From a virus, in IMG/VR virus record IMGVR_UViG_3300037313_000882: a DNA stretch of 57,270 nt; one strand, written 5' to 3'. The position numbers and the translations under genes were made by a program. The notes below the pieces were generated by a model, which was given only the letters and a program-made list of their open reading frames with translations, ran no database searches and was not told where the DNA came from. The first letter of the stretch is position 1. The number at the start of each line of letters is the position of its first letter. Below are positions 31,718 through 57,270 of the stretch, piece by piece.

Positions 31718-31996
31718 ATGAGTTACGCCTACACCCCCGAAACGCTCGCCGGCCATTGGGGCGTCTCGGCTGCCACCATCCGCAACCTCGTTCGCGAAGG
31801 GACCTTGCGTGCTTTCCGCGTCGGGCGGCAAATCCGCATCCGTCCTTCCGACGTGACAGCCTATGAGGAAGCCCAGTGCCAGAATGGCGGATCAAGCTCT
31901 ATCGGGGAGCTTACTACGGGGTCTCAAGCCATGAGGGGAAGACTAAGCGCTTCGCTCTCCGCACCAAGGATCTTGGCGAGGCCCGTCAGAGGCTAG
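31718..31996 (+). CDS. xis: Excisionase-type HTH (HTH_17/MerR-like)
   Basis: TPETLAGHWGVSAATIRNLVREGTLRAFRVGRQIRIRPSDVTAYEE. The reading frame overlaps the int start by ~120 nt. Confidence 0.6.
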   Translation: MSYAYTPETLAGHWGVSAATIRNLVREGTLRAFRVGRQIRIRPSDVTAYEEAQCQNGGSSSIGELTTGSQAMRGRLSASLSAPRILARPVRG

Positions 31997-32844
31997 CCGA
32001 TCATCTGCGCAAGCCAGTCGGCCACACGGTAGGCGAGCTGGTATCGGCGTATCTGGACGACAAGGACAAGACCGCCATTCGCGCCGTCGATCTGCGGGGG
32101 GCATGGAAACAGGCAGAGGCCACCTTCGGCCACCTAAGACCAGACCAGATCACTCGCGATCTCTGCCGGTCCTACCGTGACACGCGCTATGCGGCCGGCC
32201 GCAAGCCCAACACCGTGCGCAAGGAACTGGAGGTTGTCCGCGCCGCGCTGAACTTCCACAAGAAGGGCGCCGATGCGGTTTTTGAGTTGCCGGCCCCTCC
32301 CCCGCCCAAGGAACGCTATCTCAGCCGAGATGAGGCCAGGGCGCTCTTGAAGGGCGCCAGGCGGTTTCCCCACGTCCGCGCGTTCATCGCCCTGTCGCTG
32401 GCCACAGGAGCCCGGCAATCAGCCCTCCTTGAGCTGACCTGGGACCGCGTGGATATGGAACGCAGACGCATCACCTTGGCGCTGGGAGACGCCGCAGACG
32501 ACGCGCGCAAGCGGCGCGCAACGGTCCCGATGAACCGGCGCGCCTACCGCTATCTGCGCGTGCTGCGCGAGGCCCGGACCTGCAACCACGTCATTGAGTG
32601 GGGCGGTCATCGCGTGCTGTCGATCAAGAAGGGATTCAGGGCCGCCAGCGAGCGCGCCGGGCTCGATGGGATCACCCCACACATCCTGCGCCATACGGCG
32701 GCTTCGTGGATGGCGGAAAGCGGCGTCGATATGTTCAGGATCAGCCGCTACCTGGGGCACTCGGACACCAAGGTCACAGAGCGCCGCTACGCCAAGCTGC
32801 ACCCCGACTTCCTCGCGGATGCCGCGGATGCGTTGGACTTCTAA
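31876..32844 (+). CDS. int: Tyrosine integrase
   Basis: 322 aa (GTG start). ALSLATGARQSALLELTW..., HILRHTAASWMAESG and RISRYLGHSDTKVTERRYAKL carry the R-H-R-Y catalytic pattern. Confidence 0.9.
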   Translation: MPEWRIKLYRGAYYGVSSHEGKTKRFALRTKDLGEARQRLADHLRKPVGHTVGELVSAYLDDKDKTAIRAVDLRGAWKQAEATFGHLRPDQITRDLCRSYRDTRYAAGRKPNTVRKELEVVRAALNFHKKGADAVFELPAPPPPKERYLSRDEARALLKGARRFPHVRAFIALSLATGARQSALLELTWDRVDMERRRITLALGDAADDARKRRATVPMNRRAYRYLRVLREARTCNHVIEWGGHRVLSIKKGFRAASERAGLDGITPHILRHTAASWMAESGVDMFRISRYLGHSDTKVTERRYAKLHPDFLADAADALDF

Positions 32845-33041
32845 GCCCTAGTTGCTCTTTTAGCCCAAAAGAACCAGAATCGTTGTCGCTCGCTGTCGTG
32901 TTCGACGCTTGTTCGCGGGCGCTCTTACGGGAAAATACAAGGATTTCATGGCTCGCGCACCCGCCCCTCTCGTTCACACGGATGAGGCCGCTCCTGTTGA
33001 ATCAACGGGCTCACCGGTCGATATTGGACCAATGGCTCCAA
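32845..33041. other. Probable attP arm region between int and the tRNA
   Basis: Non-coding, with short TGT(T)CG direct repeats (gttgtcgctcgctgtcgtgttcgacgcttgttcgcg). It is adjacent to the integrase. Confidence 0.35.
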
Positions 33042-33116
33042 GGACGCATAGCTCAGCGGGAGAGCATTCGCTTCACACGCGAAGGGTCGCAGGTTCAATC
33101 CCTGCTGCGTCCACCA
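33042..33116 (+). tRNA. tRNA-Val (anticodon CAC), full length with encoded CCA
   Basis: Cloverleaf folded by hand: acceptor GGACGCA/TGCGTCC, D arm GCTC..GAGC, anticodon stem TTCGC/GCGAA with loop TTCACAC, T arm GCAGG-TTCAATC-CCTGC, then discriminator A and CCA. Confidence 0.9.
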
Positions 33117-33439
33117 TTCCTCGGCGACGGCCGAGTTGCATCTACTTCATCCATGCGAAGGAAAGCGGTCGGGTGAAGATCGGGGTTTCGTGCGACCCAA
33201 TCGGACGCCTTGGCGTCCTTCAGACTGGAAGCGGCGAACCGCTGATCCTGATTGGTTGGGCGGACTTCAGCGATTGCCACCCGGCCGAAGTCCGCGCCAT
33301 GGAGCGCGACCTACATCGCTGCTTTGAACCTTGGCGCCTGTCTGGCGAATGGTTCAGCGCTATCCCGGAAATTTTACAATTCGCGCAGGAGACGTCTCAC
33401 ATGGAAACCCTGCATTCAGTGCGTTTGGCGCGAACCTAA
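33116..33439 (+). CDS. T5orf172 (GIY-YIG superfamily, MUG113-like) domain protein; start codon unresolved
   Basis: CIYFIHAKESGRVKIGVSCDPIGRLGVLQTGSGEPLILIG...ERDLHRCFEPWRLSGEWF matches T5orf172. No ATG, GTG or TTG lies between the tRNA 3' end and the first domain strand. The in-frame ATG at 33033 would overlap the whole tRNA. Confidence 0.55.
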   Translation: MPRRRPSCIYFIHAKESGRVKIGVSCDPIGRLGVLQTGSGEPLILIGWADFSDCHPAEVRAMERDLHRCFEPWRLSGEWFSAIPEILQFAQETSHMETLHSVRLART

Positions 33440-33510
33440 CATTGCCAATCTGGGCGCGATGTGGGACTCTCTCCCTTGCACGGGTCAAGGTGATCCGCCG
33501 TTAAACGGAG

Positions 33511-34029
33511 ATGATGCAGATGTCGGCCCTACGAAACATTCCAGATAGTTGGTTCCGCGCCACCACGCACCTAACCACGATGGTCTTCCTCAAGGAGCGT
33601 TCAGCGAAGCGGATGGCGCCCCTATCGGAAGGTGAGCGCCAGCTTGGCTGGTTCGTGCTGCCGCCGTTTCAGCGGCCGCCGGTTTGGACCTTGGCGCAGA
33701 AGGTGCGCTTCATCGAAAGTTGCTGGATGGCGCTTCCGATCGGGGTGTTCATCTACAACCGCACCGACGACATGAACAGCCCGTACGACACATGGCTGCT
33801 GGACGGCCAGCAGCGCGTGACGGCAGTTCTGGAATACATGAATGATGCGTTCCCTGTGATGGACTATCGCTTCTCGGAACTCACCGAGGTCGATCATCGC
33901 CGGTGGCATATGACGACGAACTTCTCATGCATGGAAACCAACCTCACCGACGAGGCTCAGCTTCGCGACGTCTACGACCGCCTCGCCTATGGCGGTACGC
34001 CGCACGACTTGGCCGCACGGGTCTCTTGA
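33511..34029 (+). CDS. Stand-alone DUF262 (ParB/Srx-like, GmrSD N-terminal type) protein, 172 aa
   Basis: WFVLPPFQRPPVWTLAQKVRFIESCWMALPIGVF...WLLDGQQRVTAVLEY shows the FQR and DGQQR motifs. The start may be the third ATG (33520). Confidence 0.7.
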   Translation: MMQMSALRNIPDSWFRATTHLTTMVFLKERSAKRMAPLSEGERQLGWFVLPPFQRPPVWTLAQKVRFIESCWMALPIGVFIYNRTDDMNSPYDTWLLDGQQRVTAVLEYMNDAFPVMDYRFSELTEVDHRRWHMTTNFSCMETNLTDEAQLRDVYDRLAYGGTPHDLAARVS

Positions 34030-34052
34030 TCCGCCCATTGGGAGATGATGCG

Positions 34053-34419
34053 ATGGTTCGTTTATACAAGCCGATCGATTGGCAGCGGAGGATTGGCTAC
34101 CAGGTCGCCCTGACGCTTCGAAACGGGAAGCCCCGTTGCAGCGCTAGCGTTCCTAAGCCTCGGGGGGTTCCACCAATGCGAAAAGCCCGGCGTCGTAGAA
34201 ATCGACGGAGCGTGGCTCTGCAAGGTCCACGACCCCGAGGCGGTTGCGCGTCGGGAAGCGTCCGCCAAAGCGAAGAGCGACGCAGTCTGGCAGGCTCGGC
34301 GTCTGGAGTTCAACGGCGCGCGCTTCGCCAAGGCTCTGAAGCTGATTGCGGACGGTCACAACGATCCGCGAGAGCTGGCCCGCGAGACCTTGGGTGACAT
34401 CTACGACAAGCTGCCATGA
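34053..34419 (+). pseudogene. Gene split by a frameshift at a G6 tract (34162-34167)
   Basis: Frame 0 gives MVRLYKPIDWQRRIGYQVALTLRNGKPRCSASVPKPRG with a good GGGAG RBS. Frame +1 continues GFHQCEKPGVVEIDGAWLCKVHDPEAV...ALKLIADGHNDPRELARETLGDIYDKLP but has no start codon of its own. Confidence 0.45.
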
Positions 34420-34589
34420 CCCCGGACACCTTCCGCCTCGCCCAATCCAATCTCGGCCTATCAGACGCCGAAATGGCTAAGGCTGTCGGAAGGTCTCAGA
34501 ACATGATCCGGCGGTACAAGTCGGATGGATCTAGAGGACGGCCAATCCCAGACGAGGTCGCGGAGAAGGTGCGCGAGCTGCTGCGCTAG
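34416..34589 (+). CDS. Small HTH protein (57 aa)
   Basis: ATGA overlap. Translation: MTPDTFRLAQSNLGLSDAEMAKAVGRSQNMIRRYKSDGSRGRPIPDEVAEKVRELLR. Confidence 0.5.
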   Translation: MTPDTFRLAQSNLGLSDAEMAKAVGRSQNMIRRYKSDGSRGRPIPDEVAEKVRELLR

Positions 34590-34804
34590 TGCCTCGGAAG
34601 TTCGCCCTCCCCTGGTCCATCCGCGAGTTGGACTCCGCCTATGTCGTAGAGGACGCGGAAGGAATGAGGCTGGCCTACGTGTACTTTGGAGAGAGCTTTA
34701 CAGGGACAGGGGGAGATAAGCGGTATTATGTAGCAAACACACCAAGGACGTTTCGTCCGTCGCCGGATCAGGCGGCATGTGTCATCGGAAACGGTGACGC
34801 ATGA
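34589..34804 (+). CDS. Small protein (71 aa, GTG start), apparently interrupted at codon 44 by the IR cassette
   Basis: The N-terminal PRKFALPWSIRELDSAYVVEDAEGMRLAYVYFGE resembles a small alphaproteobacterial protein family. The sequence after 34720 is read from the inverted repeat. Confidence 0.4.
   Translation: MPRKFALPWSIRELDSAYVVEDAEGMRLAYVYFGESFTGTGGDKRYYVANTPRTFRPSPDQAACVIGNGDA
34720..34739. repeat. Left inverted repeat GCGGTATTATGTAGCAAACA
   Basis: It is the exact reverse complement of 37021-37040. Imperfect similarity continues ~30 bp inward. Confidence 0.95.
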
Positions 34805-34818
34805 TCGCTGGAGGTCTG

Positions 34819-36006
34819 CTAACGCTCTGTCTCATTTCCGGGTGTTGCCCGGCTGAGAATGCTCTCCCAACCCGCCATCGGGCTGAAAACGACGGTATCG
34901 CCTACGGCTTGCGACATCTCTGGGACGAGAGTTCCGCCGCGCTTGAAGAAGACGAACCGGGTTTCGTAGGCCATGCCGAATATGTCGCCATAGATGATGC
35001 GCCCCACCACCCGAAGATATCGGGTGCCTTCACGGTCAAGGCGCATCGGATAAAAGCCAGCATCGGTACGAGGGGAGATAGCGGCGGTCTTGGCGGCGCT
35101 TCCTCCCAAGGCAGTCCACACTACGTATTCGAGATCGTCGGGTATCGTGTCGGCGGCTGGATCGCCCGTTTTGGCGACTTCGGCGTACGCCCCAACCGCG
35201 AAGAACGTGGCCGGTGTCTGGCCGGCGTTGAAGCATTCAAGGATGATACCGAGGGGCTCCCAATGGCGAACGCTTGCAGATTTGGCGTACACATAGGGTG
35301 CCAGGGTTGCGCGCGCGCTCTTTTCAGAGGCCTCGATCCCGGCGCGCGTGGCGTTTGCAAGGCCGCGCATAGCGACGGCGCTGTGATCCATCGCGTATGC
35401 GGTCTTGGCGGTAAATTCGACCAATTCTTGGGATTTTTCGAGCTGAGCTTCCGAATGCTCTTGTTGCCGGAGAGCATCTTCGCGAGCGGCAGCGGCGGCA
35501 GTTCGGGCTTCCTCCAAAGCCGCATTGTCGGCGTCGGCGCTACGCTTGGCATGCCAAGCGGCGAAGCCGGCAAAGACGGCGGCAAGGGCGGCGGCGCCAA
35601 ACGCCAAGGCAGTCGCGATGGTCTGAGCGAACGCGGACCTGGATTGCTGGGCCGCGAGGATCAGATTCTGTTCGGCAAGGTCGTTCGCACGAACCGCTTC
35701 TCCGAGTGTGCTTTGATCTTTGCGATGGTCCTCAGCGGCTACGGCGCAGCGTGCGCGCTCGGCTGGGGCCTTTTTGGCGGACAGCGCATTCAGCCGCTTT
35801 GGATCGCAGCCAGCGCCGCCGGGCCGATAATCTTGCTGTGGGCCGCTATCGGCTTGGCGAGTGGGAACTTGTGGGTCCCGTGGTGAAACATATAACCAAG
35901 CCCAAGAAGTAAGGGCGGCTGTCACGAGGGCGATCACGGCAGCCACCGCGCCCACCGCGACAACCGCCTGGGGATCAGTCATCCCAAAGGAGATATCGAA
36001 GGCCAT
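34819..36006 (-). CDS. Two-TM protein with a coiled-coil-like linker and an unassigned C-terminal domain (395 aa)
   Basis: Start taken at MAFDISFGMTDPQ. TM1 is AVVAVGAVAAVIALVTAALTSWAWLYV and TM2 is AFAQTIATALAFGAAALAAVFAGFAAW. Codon usage supports the minus frame over the antisense ORF 34801..35886. Confidence 0.65.
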   Translation of the reverse strand: MAFDISFGMTDPQAVVAVGAVAAVIALVTAALTSWAWLYVSPRDPQVPTRQADSGPQQDYRPGGAGCDPKRLNALSAKKAPAERARCAVAAEDHRKDQSTLGEAVRANDLAEQNLILAAQQSRSAFAQTIATALAFGAAALAAVFAGFAAWHAKRSADADNAALEEARTAAAAAREDALRQQEHSEAQLEKSQELVEFTAKTAYAMDHSAVAMRGLANATRAGIEASEKSARATLAPYVYAKSASVRHWEPLGIILECFNAGQTPATFFAVGAYAEVAKTGDPAADTIPDDLEYVVWTALGGSAAKTAAISPRTDAGFYPMRLDREGTRYLRVVGRIIYGDIFGMAYETRFVFFKRGGTLVPEMSQAVGDTVVFSPMAGWESILSRATPGNETER

Positions 36007-36014
36007 AAATGCAG

Positions 36015-36042
36015 TTGGCCCCAACCATCCGGTTGGGGCCAA
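36015..36042 (-). terminator. Perfect 12-bp stem hairpin 8 nt upstream of the 395-aa ORF start
   Basis: The minus strand reads TTGGCCCCAACC-GGAT-GGTTGGGGCCAA, then CTGCATTT, then ATG. No SD is visible for the ORF. Confidence 0.45.
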
Positions 36043-36543
36043 CGAAATCGTGTGCTGGTTGATTTAGGAAAGGCGGCGCGTCACCCGAGACCGCCGTCAC
36101 CTTCTTTCGCCACGTAAGCCATGCTTGAACTCCTTCACACCTCGAACGGCTAGCGTAAGACTACGTTCCCCTCGGGGCTTTCGCTGCCTTATATGGGGAT
36201 CGCCTGGATTAACGCCAACCTAAGGTCTCTCCAGTTTGCGTCACTTGGGGCCGAGACCACGGGGCCGATCACTGGCAGGTGAGCGGCTCCGACGGTCCGC
36301 TTCCTGCGCCATAACATGGTCGTGGCGAAGGTTAAACGAGCCCGATGGAAGGCGTAACGGAACCGCCGAAAATGCGCAACTCACAACGCCTGTCAGGGGT
36401 GTTACAAATTGCCAAGATTCCCCGAAACGACACCGCCTCGGACCAATTTTGATAACATTATCAATGGGGCCTACAGGCTACCTCCCAATCTGTCGAAGTT
36501 ACTTCCGAGCCGCCAAGACTGCCGCCGCGCATCCCAACATCAT
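36043..36543 (-). other. ~0.5-kb non-coding leader or candidate structured RNA inside the cassette
   Basis: No credible ORF. It contains the palindrome TTGATAA-CA-TTATCAA (36449-36464), a TATAAG -10-like box, a 13-codon uORF (36081..36122) with an AAGGAG RBS, and a GGCGG/CCGCC hairpin followed by TTTCC. Confidence 0.3.
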
Positions 36544-36957
36544 CTAACGAGCACTCCTGACCTCCCTTGCCCACCTCCTGGGCGCCTCCGAGACTCGCTC
36601 AATACCGCGCCCCTCCAACCGCCCCAAGACGACGTAGAGGGAGCACTGGATGCGCTGGACGTTCCGGTAGGTGTGAGCAACGCCACGAGCCGTCAGGAGC
36701 CGCAAGGCGATTTCCTTGGCTGTCATCGGCTCGCTCGCTTCCCGAAGGACCGCCAGCGCCTCCCGCATCCAGCGGTCGCGGTTCGATGGGTAGGGCCGGA
36801 TCGGCTGGATGGCCGATAGGTCTTCGTCTGGGCTGAACATCAGGAGCACGGCGCCCAGGTGCTCTAGGTCGGTCGCTGCATCAGGTTCGCCGGCCTTCAC
36901 GCGGCCCAAGGCCTGAGCGTATTTCCGGCGGAGACCGGAGATCGCGTAGGTGTTCAT
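36544..36957 (-). CDS. Small regulator-like protein with a C-terminal winged-helix-like segment (137 aa)
   Basis: ORF track. ...EPMTAKEIALRLLTARGVAHTYRNVQRIQCSLYVVLGRLEGRGIERV. Confidence 0.55.
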   Translation of the reverse strand: MNTYAISGLRRKYAQALGRVKAGEPDAATDLEHLGAVLLMFSPDEDLSAIQPIRPYPSNRDRWMREALAVLREASEPMTAKEIALRLLTARGVAHTYRNVQRIQCSLYVVLGRLEGRGIERVSEAPRRWAREVRSAR

Positions 36958-36962
36958 TGAGT

Positions 36963-37001
36963 GTCACCGGATGTGCAATTTGCATCATCGCATCCGGTGA
37001 C
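36963..37001. promoter_or_regulatory. 11-bp inverted repeat GTCACCGGATG/CATCCGGTGAC with a nested TGCAA-T-TTGCA palindrome
   Basis: It lies between the right IR and the start of the 137-aa gene, so it is operator- or leader-like. Confidence 0.4.
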
Positions 37002-37020
37002 GTTCGCCCGGTTCTAGGTA

Positions 37021-37040
37021 TGTTTGCTACATAATACCGC
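37021..37040. repeat. Right inverted repeat TGTTTGCTACATAATACCGC
   Basis: It is the exact reverse complement of 34720-34739. Confidence 0.95.
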
Positions 37041-37218
37041 GCTTTTGCGGCGTTGGGCGGACCCCTTCGACTTGGACGCTGTCGATCTGACTGGAGAGGA
37101 CGGTGACGTGGTGCCAATCGTTCTTAACGACCTGGAAAGCGAAAACTTTCGTTTCAAGCACATCAAGGAACCGGGCGCCTAGCCCCTCACGCGCTTACCT
37201 ATCGTGGACGAGAAGAGC

Positions 37219-37749
37219 CTAACGACGGTCCCAGAGCGCCTTTTCCCTCACATACCAGTCCCGCCAGCCTTGAGCCTCGGCCCGCCACTGGAGGGCTTCT
37301 CCGTAGTTGACGGAGACGGTTTCGGCGACGGCAGAGAGCGCAAGGCCGGAAGGGGCATCGATAGATCCACTGGAGGTGCCGGAAAGGCCTGCCGGACTTC
37401 CTGATGCGGCGGCGTCGTGCAGGCGCACAAACCCAACAGGAAGCACGCACCCAGCATCAGCTTTCGCGGTGACATAGGTTGGAACCTTCTCGATCAGGGT
37501 TCGGGTGACGGTCTGGATTTGGACCTGTCGATCGGAGAGGGCGCTTCTCGCGTCCGCTGCGATCTGGTCAGCCGCCTTCTCACGCTTGGCGACGCGGTCC
37601 AAAGCGGCGGCATAGGCCTTTTCTTCCGCCTTTCGCTCGTGCTTCACCCCGGCGGAAAAGCCCGCATGGTGAATGCCGAACAGAAGGGCGACAACCCCCG
37701 TAGCGCCTATGAGGTAGCCGCCTAGGGGGTTGAAGGGAAACTGGCTCAT
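37219..37749 (-). CDS. Rz: i-spanin (Rz-like)
   Basis: 176 aa with an N-terminal TM (LGGYLIGATGVVALLFGI) and a coiled-coil periplasmic part. It contains an embedded lipoprotein ORF. Confidence 0.7.
   Translation of the reverse strand: MSQFPFNPLGGYLIGATGVVALLFGIHHAGFSAGVKHERKAEEKAYAAALDRVAKREKAADQIAADARSALSDRQVQIQTVTRTLIEKVPTYVTAKADAGCVLPVGFVRLHDAAASGSPAGLSGTSSGSIDAPSGLALSAVAETVSVNYGEALQWRAEAQGWRDWYVREKALWDRR
37248..37475 (-). CDS. Rz1: o-spanin (Rz1-like), embedded in the Rz gene in another frame
   Basis: MSPRKLMLGACFLLGLCACTTPP... has a signal peptide with a lipobox-like LGLC/LCAC. The mature part is Pro-rich. Confidence 0.6.
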   Translation of the reverse strand: MSPRKLMLGACFLLGLCACTTPPHQEVRQAFPAPPVDLSMPLPALRSLPSPKPSPSTTEKPSSGGPRLKAGGTGM

Positions 37750-37916
37750 TCAGCCGGCGGGTTGAGTTCGTTGGCCAACGCCTGCACGGCGGCGGCGTCT
37801 TCGGTCTGCGCAGCATCGACCGCAGGGGCGGTTGCATCGGAGACGGCCTTGGCGATCTTGGCGTCGATGGCGGCGCGCAGATTGCTCATGGCGGAGTCAA
37901 AGGCGGGGGAGGACAT
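37746..37916 (-). CDS. Small protein (56 aa) sharing a C-terminal motif with the ORF at 37929..38360
   Basis: MSSPAFDSAMSNLRAAIDAKIAKAVSDATAPAVDAAQTEDAAAVQALANELNPPAE, with an ATGA overlap with Rz. Confidence 0.35.
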   Translation of the reverse strand: MSSPAFDSAMSNLRAAIDAKIAKAVSDATAPAVDAAQTEDAAAVQALANELNPPAE

Positions 37917-37928
37917 GGGGAGTTCCTT

Positions 37929-38360
37929 TCAGGCGGGGTTCAGTTGAGCCGCGAGAGCTTGGACGGCGGCGGCGTCCTCGGCTTGGGCCGCAGCGACAGC
38001 CGGGGCCACGAGATCGGTTGCGGGCTTGGCGTTGATGCCGGCGATCACGTCGGCGACCTGTTGCTGCACAGCGGCGAGACGTATCTGGGAGGCGCTGAGT
38101 TCGGCTTGAAGGGCTGCTTCGGCCTTCTGCGCGCGGGTTTCCGTCGCGGCCAGCTCGGCTTTGAGCTGAGAGATTTCAGCTGAGACGATCTCAGGGAGGT
38201 CTCGCTTGATGGCTTCCCAGGCATCCGCAGCGCTCACGGCAAGCGTGCTGGCAAGGTCGCTGACCTTCGGCTGCATATGGAGCGGCGGATGCTTGTAGAT
38301 CCACCAGGCGCCCCCGCCAAAGGCCAGAACGCCAAGTCCGATGAGAATGTCCCAGAACAT
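37929..38360 (-). CDS. N-terminal-TM coiled-coil protein in the lysis cassette (143 aa)
   Basis: ORF track. It begins MFWDILIGLGVLAFGGGAWWIY, is followed by a heptad-like region, and ends ...AAAVQALAAQLNPA. Confidence 0.5.
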   Translation of the reverse strand: MFWDILIGLGVLAFGGGAWWIYKHPPLHMQPKVSDLASTLAVSAADAWEAIKRDLPEIVSAEISQLKAELAATETRAQKAEAALQAELSASQIRLAAVQQQVADVIAGINAKPATDLVAPAVAAAQAEDAAAVQALAAQLNPA

Positions 38361-39025
38361 CAGGCGGCTCGCTGCTTAAGGATTTGAGAGGCGATCCCGA
38401 CCATGACAAGCCCACCCGCAATGGTAAGCAGCACGGTCGAAACATGGGAGATAATCGGAGAGCCCGAGAAGTCGCCGAGCTGATCAGCCCACCCTTTGAC
38501 CACGGGGGCATATTCAGCGGCCTTCGCGCCAGCCGCAGCAACGCCTAAGCTCGCCGCGCCGACCTGGGCTTGAAACGACGTCTTCTGGGCCAAGGGCGGC
38601 GGCTTGGCGTCCGCGACGCCGGCCATCCGGATGCCCTCGGCGATCACCGCGTCGCTATAGGGCTGGGAGCCGTTTTCGTGTAGGATGATGGCCTTGATGA
38701 GCCCGGTCATGACCTGGGCGCTGTCCACGTCGATCTCGTCATCGGGACCCACGCCGACGCTCTTCGCGACCGCTTGGATATAGGCCTCGGTCTTATTCTC
38801 GTTCGGGGGCGCCCAGCGGTTGATCAGGCCTCGAATCGTGTTGAGGTGGTACTGGTTCTGATAGGTCAGCATCAGCCGCGCGATGGCTCGGATGCCATAT
38901 TGCGGGCTCTTGAAGACCACGAAGCGCGGATCGGACGACTGATCATCCGCCATGCCCTGCCACTTGGTTCCGGCGTGGCGGTCGATATTGCCGGGGTTAT
39001 TGTTCCGGATGCCACGAGACGTCAT
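38360..39025 (-). CDS. Putative peptidoglycan hydrolase (RNNNPGNI-motif family) with a C-terminal TM segment
   Basis: 221 aa. The N-terminal SRGIRNNNPGNIDRHAGTKWQG is typical of proteins annotated as structural protein P5-like or endolysin. The C-terminal ISHVSTVLLTIAGGLVMVGIASQIL is hydrophobic. Confidence 0.5.
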   Translation of the reverse strand: MTSRGIRNNNPGNIDRHAGTKWQGMADDQSSDPRFVVFKSPQYGIRAIARLMLTYQNQYHLNTIRGLINRWAPPNENKTEAYIQAVAKSVGVGPDDEIDVDSAQVMTGLIKAIILHENGSQPYSDAVIAEGIRMAGVADAKPPPLAQKTSFQAQVGAASLGVAAAGAKAAEYAPVVKGWADQLGDFSGSPIISHVSTVLLTIAGGLVMVGIASQILKQRAA

Positions 39026-57119: not shown

Positions 57120-57270
57120 TCAGGCGAGATCGCCTACGACACATCCCCATTCAGGCCGGACATAGAGGTAACCGAACAAGCAGTCCACGCGGTCCACGAA
57201 CTGGTCGGTCGCCACGTTGTAGAAGTTCCGGATGACCCGGATCGCCAGGCCATCGCTTTCCGCGCGGGCG
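57120..57270 (-). CDS. 3' end of the major capsid gene (stop at 57120); 57144..57270 duplicates 1..127
   Basis: Reading through the junction gives ...YLYVRPEWGCVVGDLA followed by a stop. The total is 407 aa. Confidence 0.8.
   Translation of the reverse strand, partial: ARAESDGLAIRVIRNFYNVATDQFVDRVDCLFGYLYVRPEWGCVVGDLA
57144..57270. repeat. Terminal direct repeat copy 2
   Basis: Identical to 1..127. Confidence 0.95.

Follow-up and report, generated by a model that had tools for sequence, protein, structure and literature searches.

A probable IS1595-derived cassette with an unannotated membrane-protein gene in the genome of a temperate phage

The viral record IMGVR_UViG_3300037313_000882, 57,270 nt long, was analysed over its whole length (hereafter the window). 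At positions 34720–37040 it contains a 2.3-kb cassette bounded by inverted repeats (IRs), which is very probably a derivative of the IS1595 lineage of insertion sequences (ISs), with the repeats as candidate transposase-binding ends. The contents of the cassette are those listed in the original prediction: a 137-aa ORF (36544–36957, minus strand), a gap of about 0.5 kb without a called gene, and a 395-aa ORF for a membrane protein with two transmembrane (TM) helices (34819–36006, minus strand; 407 aa if read from an upstream TTG), which is treated here as the cargo gene. Neither Pfam, tblastn nor profile scans gave a signal of a transposase, integrase or invertase inside the cassette, as first stated, and its position between a plus-strand accessory region and the minus-strand lysis cassette was confirmed as well.

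The 20-nt sequence GCGGTATTATGTAGCAAACA at 34720–34739 is repeated as its exact reverse complement at 37021–37040. Such a pair was not found in any of 100 dinucleotide-preserving shuffles, even with 3 mismatches allowed, which bears out the claim that the perfect inverted pair is beyond chance; its imperfect inward continuation is also real, the repeat extending to 49 nt with 80% complementarity (34720–34768 against 36992–37040). The left, cargo-side terminal IR (34721–34743, plus strand) carries the 23-nt core CGGTATTATGTAGCAAACACACC and agrees with the family consensus in all 23 positions. The right terminal IR (37017–37039, minus strand) lies on the side of the 137-aa gene, here called winged helix-turn-helix (wHTH)-like, and agrees with the core in 22 of 23 positions, with AACATACC in place of AACACACC. 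Each terminal repeat is followed by a subterminal palindrome. The left end region (34721–34799, plus strand) combines the IR with an imperfect palindrome, CGTCGCCGGAT (34758–34768) and CGGTGACG (34792–34799), and at the right end a palindrome with perfect 11-bp arms, GTCACCGGATG-N17-CATCCGGTGAC (36963–37001), lies inward of the IR and ahead of the start codon of the 137-aa gene, which reads inward and starts 59 nt inside the right IR.

Other copies of the repeat, for which a search had been proposed, were found both in bacterial genomes and in viral contigs: the collection scan recovered an 18-mer of the IR in 5 viral contigs and a 19-mer in 40 loci of bacterial genomes. In these 40 loci and in at least four viral contigs, with genomes ranging from 33 to 70% GC, the 23-nt core does not vary, and such invariance over so wide a range of base composition indicates a protein-recognition site rather than drifting sequence. 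One 18-mer match (locus L002) was set aside: beyond the 18-mer its 23-nt core has 5 mismatches, and it probably reflects chance or a partial match. The hosts are mostly Alphaproteobacteria (Caulobacter, Phenylobacterium, Terasakiella, Methylocystaceae, Rickettsiales and Defluviicoccus), and Rodentibacter is also represented.

At ten loci, two facing copies of the IR are separated by 1.7–4.3 kb and have perfect 8-bp direct repeats, that is, target-site duplications (TSDs), on their outer sides: AATAATTT in L004, AAAATTTC in L006, GATCATTC in L010, CCGAACTC in L012, L023 and L031, AGCATTAC in L024, CGAATACG in L029, CGGAAGTG in L038 and GGGAACTC in L044. The target duplication of L064 is TTCATGTG. 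Nine of the ten elements with duplicated flanks are full length and encode a transposase of about 320 aa, the transposase of L004 being truncated. The transposase of these sibling elements matches the NCBIfam model NF033547, 'IS1595 family transposase', with 153–155 bits (cutoff 75), together with the domains PF12762 (DDE_Tnp_IS1595) and PF12760 (Zn_ribbon_IS1595). An 8-bp TSD and the Zn-ribbon and DDE domains are the hallmarks of the IS1595 family (PMC8101967).

The core gene content was defined by all-against-all ORF clustering within 11 IR-bounded elements. Three genes are conserved: the transposase, a DUF6471 gene divergent from it (present in 9 of the 11 elements) and a homologue of the 137-aa protein of the window. 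In the full-length elements the order is IR, inward wHTH-like gene, slot A, IS1595-type DDE transposase on the opposite strand, divergent DUF6471 gene, slot B and IR; the two slots, A between accessory gene and transposase and B after DUF6471, hold variable cargo, among it a PemK toxin and a SocA/Panacea-domain gene in the siblings L061 and L064–L069. One of these siblings, recognised by an identical protein (P0015), was found in at least three genomic contexts and has therefore moved recently. The minimal form is L074:3331–5028, a 1.7-kb element on plasmid pTT6-1 of Skermanella sp. TT6 (NZ_CP067421.1), which consists of the transposase and the accessory gene only and ends in the diverged repeat CGCTCTTATGTAGCAGACACCAC. 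Among annotated plasmid transposases, even the nearest do not exceed 56% identity, and they bear only the label 'IS1595 family transposase'. What is delimited in this way is a widespread IS1595 lineage, in Alphaproteobacteria, Rodentibacter and viral contigs, with an invariant 23-nt end, two accessory genes and two cargo slots that often hold genes of the toxin-antitoxin type.

Some features of this lineage were observed in passing. In four loci (L012:20–4134, L023:1221–5108, L031:1321–5380 and L044:1124–4781, from a Caulobacter metagenome-assembled genome (MAG), Phenylobacterium sp. J426, an uncultured Phenylobacterium and a Rhodospirillales MAG) full-length elements share one identical insertion point in a conserved host gene of the comM/yifB type, which is split at ...VLFLDELPEF. 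Their TSDs are CCGAACTC or GGGAACTC and the flanks are 70–83% identical between the genomes, which suggests that part of the lineage targets this gene site-specifically. Unusual arrangements of the ends also occur: a tandem pair of the 23-nt repeat (L007:2694–2739), two copies back to back 37 bp apart (L078:5942–6023), close direct copies (L008:357–414), and partial end duplications abutting a full end in the flanks of L013, L020 and L033; nested insertion or the formation of junction products could account for them. Of the 40 genome loci, about half contain a lone end, with neither transposase nor accessory gene within the 8-kb locus. Solitary repeats were seen inside ORFs of viral contigs as well (L005:9754–9776, where the repeat encodes ...CVCYIIP..., and L003:4548–4570), and a called 52-aa ORF of the window (37024–37182) starts inside the right IR; lone ends can in this manner create or extend small ORFs.

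The 137-aa gene of the window belongs to this core. All 11 IR-bounded elements have a homologue that adjoins one IR and is directed inward (a 63-aa fragment in L004), as do further loci, and the closest relatives, with 71–76% identity, are encoded in the full-length elements L061 and L064–L069. Since it is found in every one of the 11 elements and even in the minimal L074, it is a core accessory gene, not a regulator that came with the cargo, as had been supposed. The winged-helix assignment of the original prediction stands only in so far as sub-threshold Pfam matches go (HARE-HTH and HTH_12, E 0.03–0.07); a PDB sequence search with the profile of the accessory protein gave nothing below E=0.2. 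The palindrome in front of the gene at 36963–37001 is a putative operator or protein-binding site. An equivalent palindrome occupies the same position in L061, L064, L071 and L023, with a degenerate form at the cargo-side ends, and the end layout of this subgroup (23-nt terminal repeat, short spacer and a palindrome of about 40 nt of the type GTCACCGGAT...ATCCGGTGAC) is common to the ends of 8 sibling elements. The subterminal palindromes are probable binding sites of the accessory protein, which would serve its autoregulation or the recognition of the ends.

A perfect 20-bp inverted pair with palindromes beside the gene of a putative DNA-binding protein might be expected if the repeats were crossover sites of an invertible switch or paired operators of a phage regulator. 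This is most improbable, because no invertase is encoded in or near the cassette (33500–38500), the nearest recombinase being the phage integrase at 31876–32844, and because the same 23-nt sequence terminates elements with an IS1595 transposase and 8-bp duplications in dozens of unrelated genomes.

The ends of the window cassette are those of transposase-bearing IS1595 members, with 23/23 matches to the core on the left and 22/23 on the right, and with about 78% identity over 77 nt and 470 nt, respectively. Over 76–77 nt the left end shares 78–80% identity with the cargo-side ends of L064/L066/L067 and of L071, and it is 79% identical to that of L023; with the slot-B end of L064 the alignment covers 34721–34797 at 78%. 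On the right, 36569–37040 shows 78% identity to L061 and 73% to L064. The DNA between the aligned ends is unrelated to the elements L061 and L064. The IS1595 transposase (PF12762, in most subgroups with an N-terminal PF12760 domain) is absent from the window and present in siblings with the same IR, so the cassette is to be regarded as a derivative of the family, not as an autonomous member.

A second cassette of the same layout was found at L071. It is 2.56 kb long and consists of IR, accessory gene, a spacer of about 560 bp, a gene for a membrane protein (TM375) and IR, without a transposase; a 22-codon remnant of DUF6471 is still recognisable at the expected place, and the flanks retain a target duplication in 7 of 8 positions (CAATTTTC and CAGTTTTC). 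A truncated copy of this type of cassette is present in a phage-like contig (L070/L072) beside a Peptidase_M15 gene. Between the window and L071, the TM genes and cargo-side ends share about 76–80% DNA identity, while the accessory proteins are only 24% identical, and this mosaic identity points to modular recombination among the elements.

The suspicion that the cassette is a non-autonomous derivative of a mobile element was well founded: its IRs correspond to the termini of the IS1595 lineage, whose siblings possess the transposase and 8-bp TSDs, and L071 repeats its layout. It is of a known kind, an IS1595-family transporter IS (tIS) or a mobile insertion cassette (MIC), and consequently represents a new member rather than the undescribed system that had been proposed. 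ISNha5 is a tIS of the IS1595 family with transcription regulators as passengers (PMC11891212), and the tIS subgroups ISNha5 and ISNwi1 go back to Siguier, Gagnevin and Chandler (2009), as cited in PMC11891212, PMC8101967 and PMC3129680. The likeness lies in the siblings with the same terminal repeat, which have the Zn_ribbon_IS1595/DDE_Tnp_IS1595 transposase, 8-bp TSDs and passengers that include putative regulators; the difference is that the window copy has neither transposase nor target duplication. The IR consensus of the ISNha5 group is CGGnnTT, with which the end CGGTATT would agree; this subgroup assignment is provisional.

In a MIC, the terminal repeats of a known IS surround one or more passenger genes without a transposase (PMC3129680), an example being MIC231 of Bacillus cereus, which derives from IS231 (De Palmenaer et al., 2004, as cited in PMC3129680). 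This is what the window contains, IS-family IRs and a passenger without a transposase, with movement in trans by a cognate transposase presumed. The cassette differs from a MIC in that it also keeps the core accessory gene of its parent and is not pure cargo, and its own mobility is presumed only. Miniature transposable elements with inverted repeats (MITEs) are likewise non-autonomous IS derivatives that keep the ends for transposition in trans; however, they are short and non-coding, in contrast to a 2.3-kb cassette with two genes. IS derivatives are rarely annotated in phage genomes, and the cassette provides a concrete route by which the cargo of a bacterial transposon can reach a temperate phage.

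In the scheme proposed here, the window copy has kept both ends of about 80 bp, the end-proximal accessory gene and one cargo gene of the slot-B type, whereas the transposase and DUF6471 are gone, with an unrelated 537-bp spacer in their place. The cassette would have entered the phage genome through transposition, or through recombination with a further copy, when the temperate phage resided in an alphaproteobacterial (Caulobacterales-like) host that harboured active copies. Given its two intact ends, a cognate transposase could still mobilise it in trans. A cassette that can be mobilised in trans and a fixed relic come out at roughly even chances.

Several results weigh against this scheme. 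The flanks of the window copy, GAGATAAG and CGCTTTTG, contain no 8-bp target duplication of the kind typical of the IS1595 family (PMC8101967). Neither an empty site nor a second copy of the exact cassette was found in the collections searched, so that all three signs of transposition that could be sought for a MIC (duplication, several copies, empty site) are missing for the window copy. The spacer holds no gene remnants, and the origin of the window cassette is thus not documented in the way that of L071 is. Where the function of the cargo is concerned, neither window protein matches a PADLOC defence model at E≤0.01, and the fold matches of the cargo protein are weak (TM-scores 0.2–0.4). The missing duplication would point either to simple transposition with a later rearrangement beside the element, or to entry by recombination in place of a simple insertion.

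Part of these results would be expected if a full-length element had lost its transposase in place within the phage, leaving a dead relic that never moved as a cassette and cannot move now. We give this explanation somewhat less than an even chance. It is favoured by the lack of a target duplication, of a second copy and of an empty site, by the one mismatch of the right IR to the consensus, by the existence of decayed relatives (L001, L004, L070/72, L075 and L082) and by the orthologous insertion L061, which is also without its duplication. However, both ends of about 80 bp are intact (23/23 and 22/23) with both subterminal palindromes present, L071, of the same layout, has a 7/8 target duplication in another context, and the spacer is free of the gene debris that decay in place should leave behind.

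The spacer (36007–36543, 537 bp, 57% GC) occupies the place that the transposase and DUF6471 have in full-length elements. No remnants of either gene were detected in it by tblastn or with the DUF6471 profile, the scores being below those of shuffles, and comparison with the sibling elements gave no similarity. Its reading as a long leader is not supported, with no Rfam match at E≤1, a fold z-score of −1.87 and no conservation in any relative. Promoter and terminator scans of the spacer found nothing. A perfect 13-bp G+C-rich hairpin (GTTGGCCCCAACC/GGTTGGGGCCAAC, 36014–36043, minus strand) lies just upstream of the start of the 395-aa gene and overlaps the alternative TTG; it escaped the terminator scan because it has no T-run, and it is not conserved in relatives. 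The hairpin could be a terminator or an insulator between the two genes.

The original prediction had further proposed that the cassette was inserted into a pre-existing small gene, since its removal joins the two flanks in frame. The left flank outside the element (34589–34719, plus strand) holds the 5' portion of an ORF continuing into the element and has no homologues; the right flank (37041–37182, plus strand, from the ORF calls) is an open frame, with the element on one side and the end of the spanin gene on the other. The arithmetic of the join is right (90 codons and a stop), yet it carries little weight because 41.5% of random frames of the contig stay open over at least 47 codons. A search with the joined 90-aa ORF as query, covering phages, plasmids, viral contigs and 5.8 billion proteins, brought back only the 52-aa ORF of the window itself. 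With no 8-bp duplication and no other homologue, the proposed insertion into a gene was not upheld, nor did the suggested search for an empty site find one in phages, plasmids, viral contigs or proteins. The spanin used as a query against the viral collection brought up no close relatives of the phage, and a 28-mer of the left flank had no match in the metagenome collection, to which the source sample does not belong. L044 served as a control: removal of the element and one copy of the duplication restores an intact ORF of a Mg_chelatase of the YifB/ComM type (PF01078, 318 bits), as a true insertion should and unlike the join in the window.

According to alignment and model, the 395-aa cargo protein has a positively charged N-terminus, followed by TM1, a loop of about 85 residues, TM2, a coiled coil of variable length and a C-terminal beta-sandwich. 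The AlphaFold model (mean pLDDT 67) places a helix at 12–40, a long helix including TM2 at 80–167, a coiled helix at 171–235 and the beta-sandwich at 239–356; the C-terminal domain modelled alone was poor (pLDDT 54) and was not used. Two cysteines of the loop, Cys67 and Cys87, are invariant, and the C-terminal part contains the motifs RPYV...NxGxTPA...YxDxxG. The invariant cysteines and the charge pattern argue for a periplasmic loop, from which we infer a topology with the N-terminus inside and the coiled coil in the cytoplasm.

Neither cassette protein produced a match above threshold in Pfam, PHROG, NCBIfam or PADLOC, and tblastn of both against phage records was negative. A word-indexed search of 5.8 billion proteins retrieved 12 relatives of the 395-aa protein, none with a Pfam domain or an informative name, and a profile search extended these to 2,023 cluster representatives at E≤1e-10, with no Pfam domain in any of the 51 that were scanned. 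The cargo protein is a member of a large unannotated family; with at least 2,000 cluster representatives and no Pfam annotation, this family is now flagged as recurrent cargo, which gives its functional study a genomic handle.

Foldseek against PDB gave chains of the Kir/KirBac channels as top matches (TM-scores 0.2–0.37). The likeness comprises two TM helices, an extracytoplasmic loop with a pair of cysteines and a cytoplasmic Ig-like beta-sandwich, in the same order. However, besides these low TM-scores, the identity is 10–15%, and the loop at 39–125 contains no T-x-G-Y-G filter in any family member, so a Kir channel was dismissed for lack of a selectivity filter and because of the TM-scores; the resemblance may be nothing but a generic pattern of helices followed by a beta-sandwich. 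Among viral models, a transmembrane protein of Rhizobium phage RHEph01, itself uncharacterised, matches best (E 8e-6, TM-score 0.38).

Where genes of this family lie in IS1595-type elements, they are found in slot B, directly after DUF6471 and overlapping it: in the full-length element of the contig with protein P0005, in L081 and in L029 (hhalign probability 99.4%). A weaker match stands beside the cargo-side IR of L006 (hmmsearch E 4.9e-16), and the family follows DUF6471 also in the decayed elements L075/76 and L082. The two genes overlap by 46–58 nt (L029:1977–2225/976–2034, L075:3065–3421/3376–4374 and L082:3078–3251/3206–4339; 46 nt in the P0005 contig), which suggests a translationally coupled two-gene operon. 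In the window copy the DUF6471 half of this pair is missing. Further family members were located in an island that also contains RhuM and a DUF927 primase, and in plain chromosomal contexts without IRs. The 211-aa TM cargo of L001 was rejected as a homologue (hhalign probability 0.2%).

A conflict-related membrane function (exclusion, addiction or defence) is the best guess for the cargo, and a tentative one, prompted by the genes of toxin-antitoxin type in sibling slots and by the recurrent carriage of the family on mobile DNA. That the phage keeps the cassette for this benefit, as a module of superinfection exclusion, abortive infection or addiction, is possible but doubtful; this corresponds to the function suggested in the original prediction. 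In its favour, sibling cargo slots contain PemK toxin and SocA/Panacea genes, the family recurs on mobile DNA (the transporter IS, the phage-like contig by Peptidase_M15, the RhuM/DUF927 island), and the best viral fold match comes from the uncharacterised Rhizobium phage protein. On the other hand, no assignment was obtained from PADLOC, Pfam or PHROG, some family members have ordinary chromosomal contexts, and the window gene is without its usual upstream DUF6471 partner.

A bolder version, which we consider rather unlikely, makes DUF6471 and the two-TM/beta-sandwich protein a hitherto unrecognised, transposon-borne conflict module, with the wHTH protein perhaps a factor of target selection or end recognition. 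If so, the IS1595 lineage would shuttle a conflict module between chromosomes, plasmids and phages, the membrane protein being, for example, an effector of exclusion or abortive infection controlled by a small HTH repressor, and the phage copy without the repressor would confer constitutive superinfection exclusion. The supposed role of the wHTH protein would explain the four exact insertions in the comM/yifB-type gene.

The window corresponds to an entire metagenome contig (JGI 3300037420, Ga0395906_0000435), with a terminal direct repeat of 127 bp (1–127 and 57144–57270). By virtue of this overlap it is the complete, circularly closed genome of a temperate phage, about 57.1 kb long and without host flanks, and it encodes a portal, terminase, primase and integrase. 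To the left of the cassette, the plus-strand accessory region includes the integrase, a MUG113 gene, a GmrSD_N/DUF262 protein and an Xre-like HTH protein. To the right is the end of the minus-strand lysis cassette, with the endolysin at 38360–39025 and an Rz-like spanin at 37219–37749 (minus strand), the latter assigned by matches to PHROG spanin families.

The cassette is situated directly downstream of the endolysin and Rz-like spanin genes in the same orientation, and the relative in L072 also follows a Peptidase_M15 gene; the 395-aa protein might on these grounds be a lysis accessory (holin, antiholin or spanin-like) and the repeats incidental. We regard this as very improbable, given that the gene forms part of a transposon-derived unit with ends that unrelated genomes have in common, that its relatives are found in transposons and on chromosomes where lysis genes are lacking, and that, the element apart, the L070/L072 contig has no relationship to this phage. 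Nor does the protein match any PHROG lysis family, its sole match being phrog_9090, 'membrane protein', at E=0.04; a lysis-family match for the cassette proteins would have undermined the original prediction, and PHROG supplied none.

The arrangement was seen again in independent assemblies, one of which (L051) equals the window over 12.5 kb, and the cassette is therefore not an assembly artefact; every sibling assembly of the same phage that spans the site contains it. Short contigs of the same phage from sibling samples (L047–L049 and L052–L054) stop at 34653, 34704, 34705, 36790, 36811 and 37016. Two independent assemblies end at 34704 and 34705, and one at 37016, just within the IR. These breaks at the cassette borders could reflect repeat-induced branching of the assembly graph or variation in the population. 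The claim that the cassette is AT-richer than the rest is correct in direction, with 60.7% against 63.6% GC, the 4.5th percentile of windows of the same size, but the difference is marginal, coming mainly from the spacer, and the left flank is likewise at about 60%.

In the accessory region, the integrase gene (31876–32844) is followed by tRNA-Val (33042–33116), the MUG113-domain gene and the GmrSD_N/DUF262-domain gene (33511–34029), which has about 70% DNA identity to the DUF262 gene of Caulobacter phage CcrColossus; the genes at 31876–34029 look like phage-borne accessory genes of the defence type. In the lysis cassette, a direct repeat of 65 nt with 72% identity (37759–37823 and 37936–38000) lies inside two adjacent small genes. 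Both copies encode A(V/A)AAQ(T/A)EDAAAVQALA..LNP, which suggests a duplicated gene segment.

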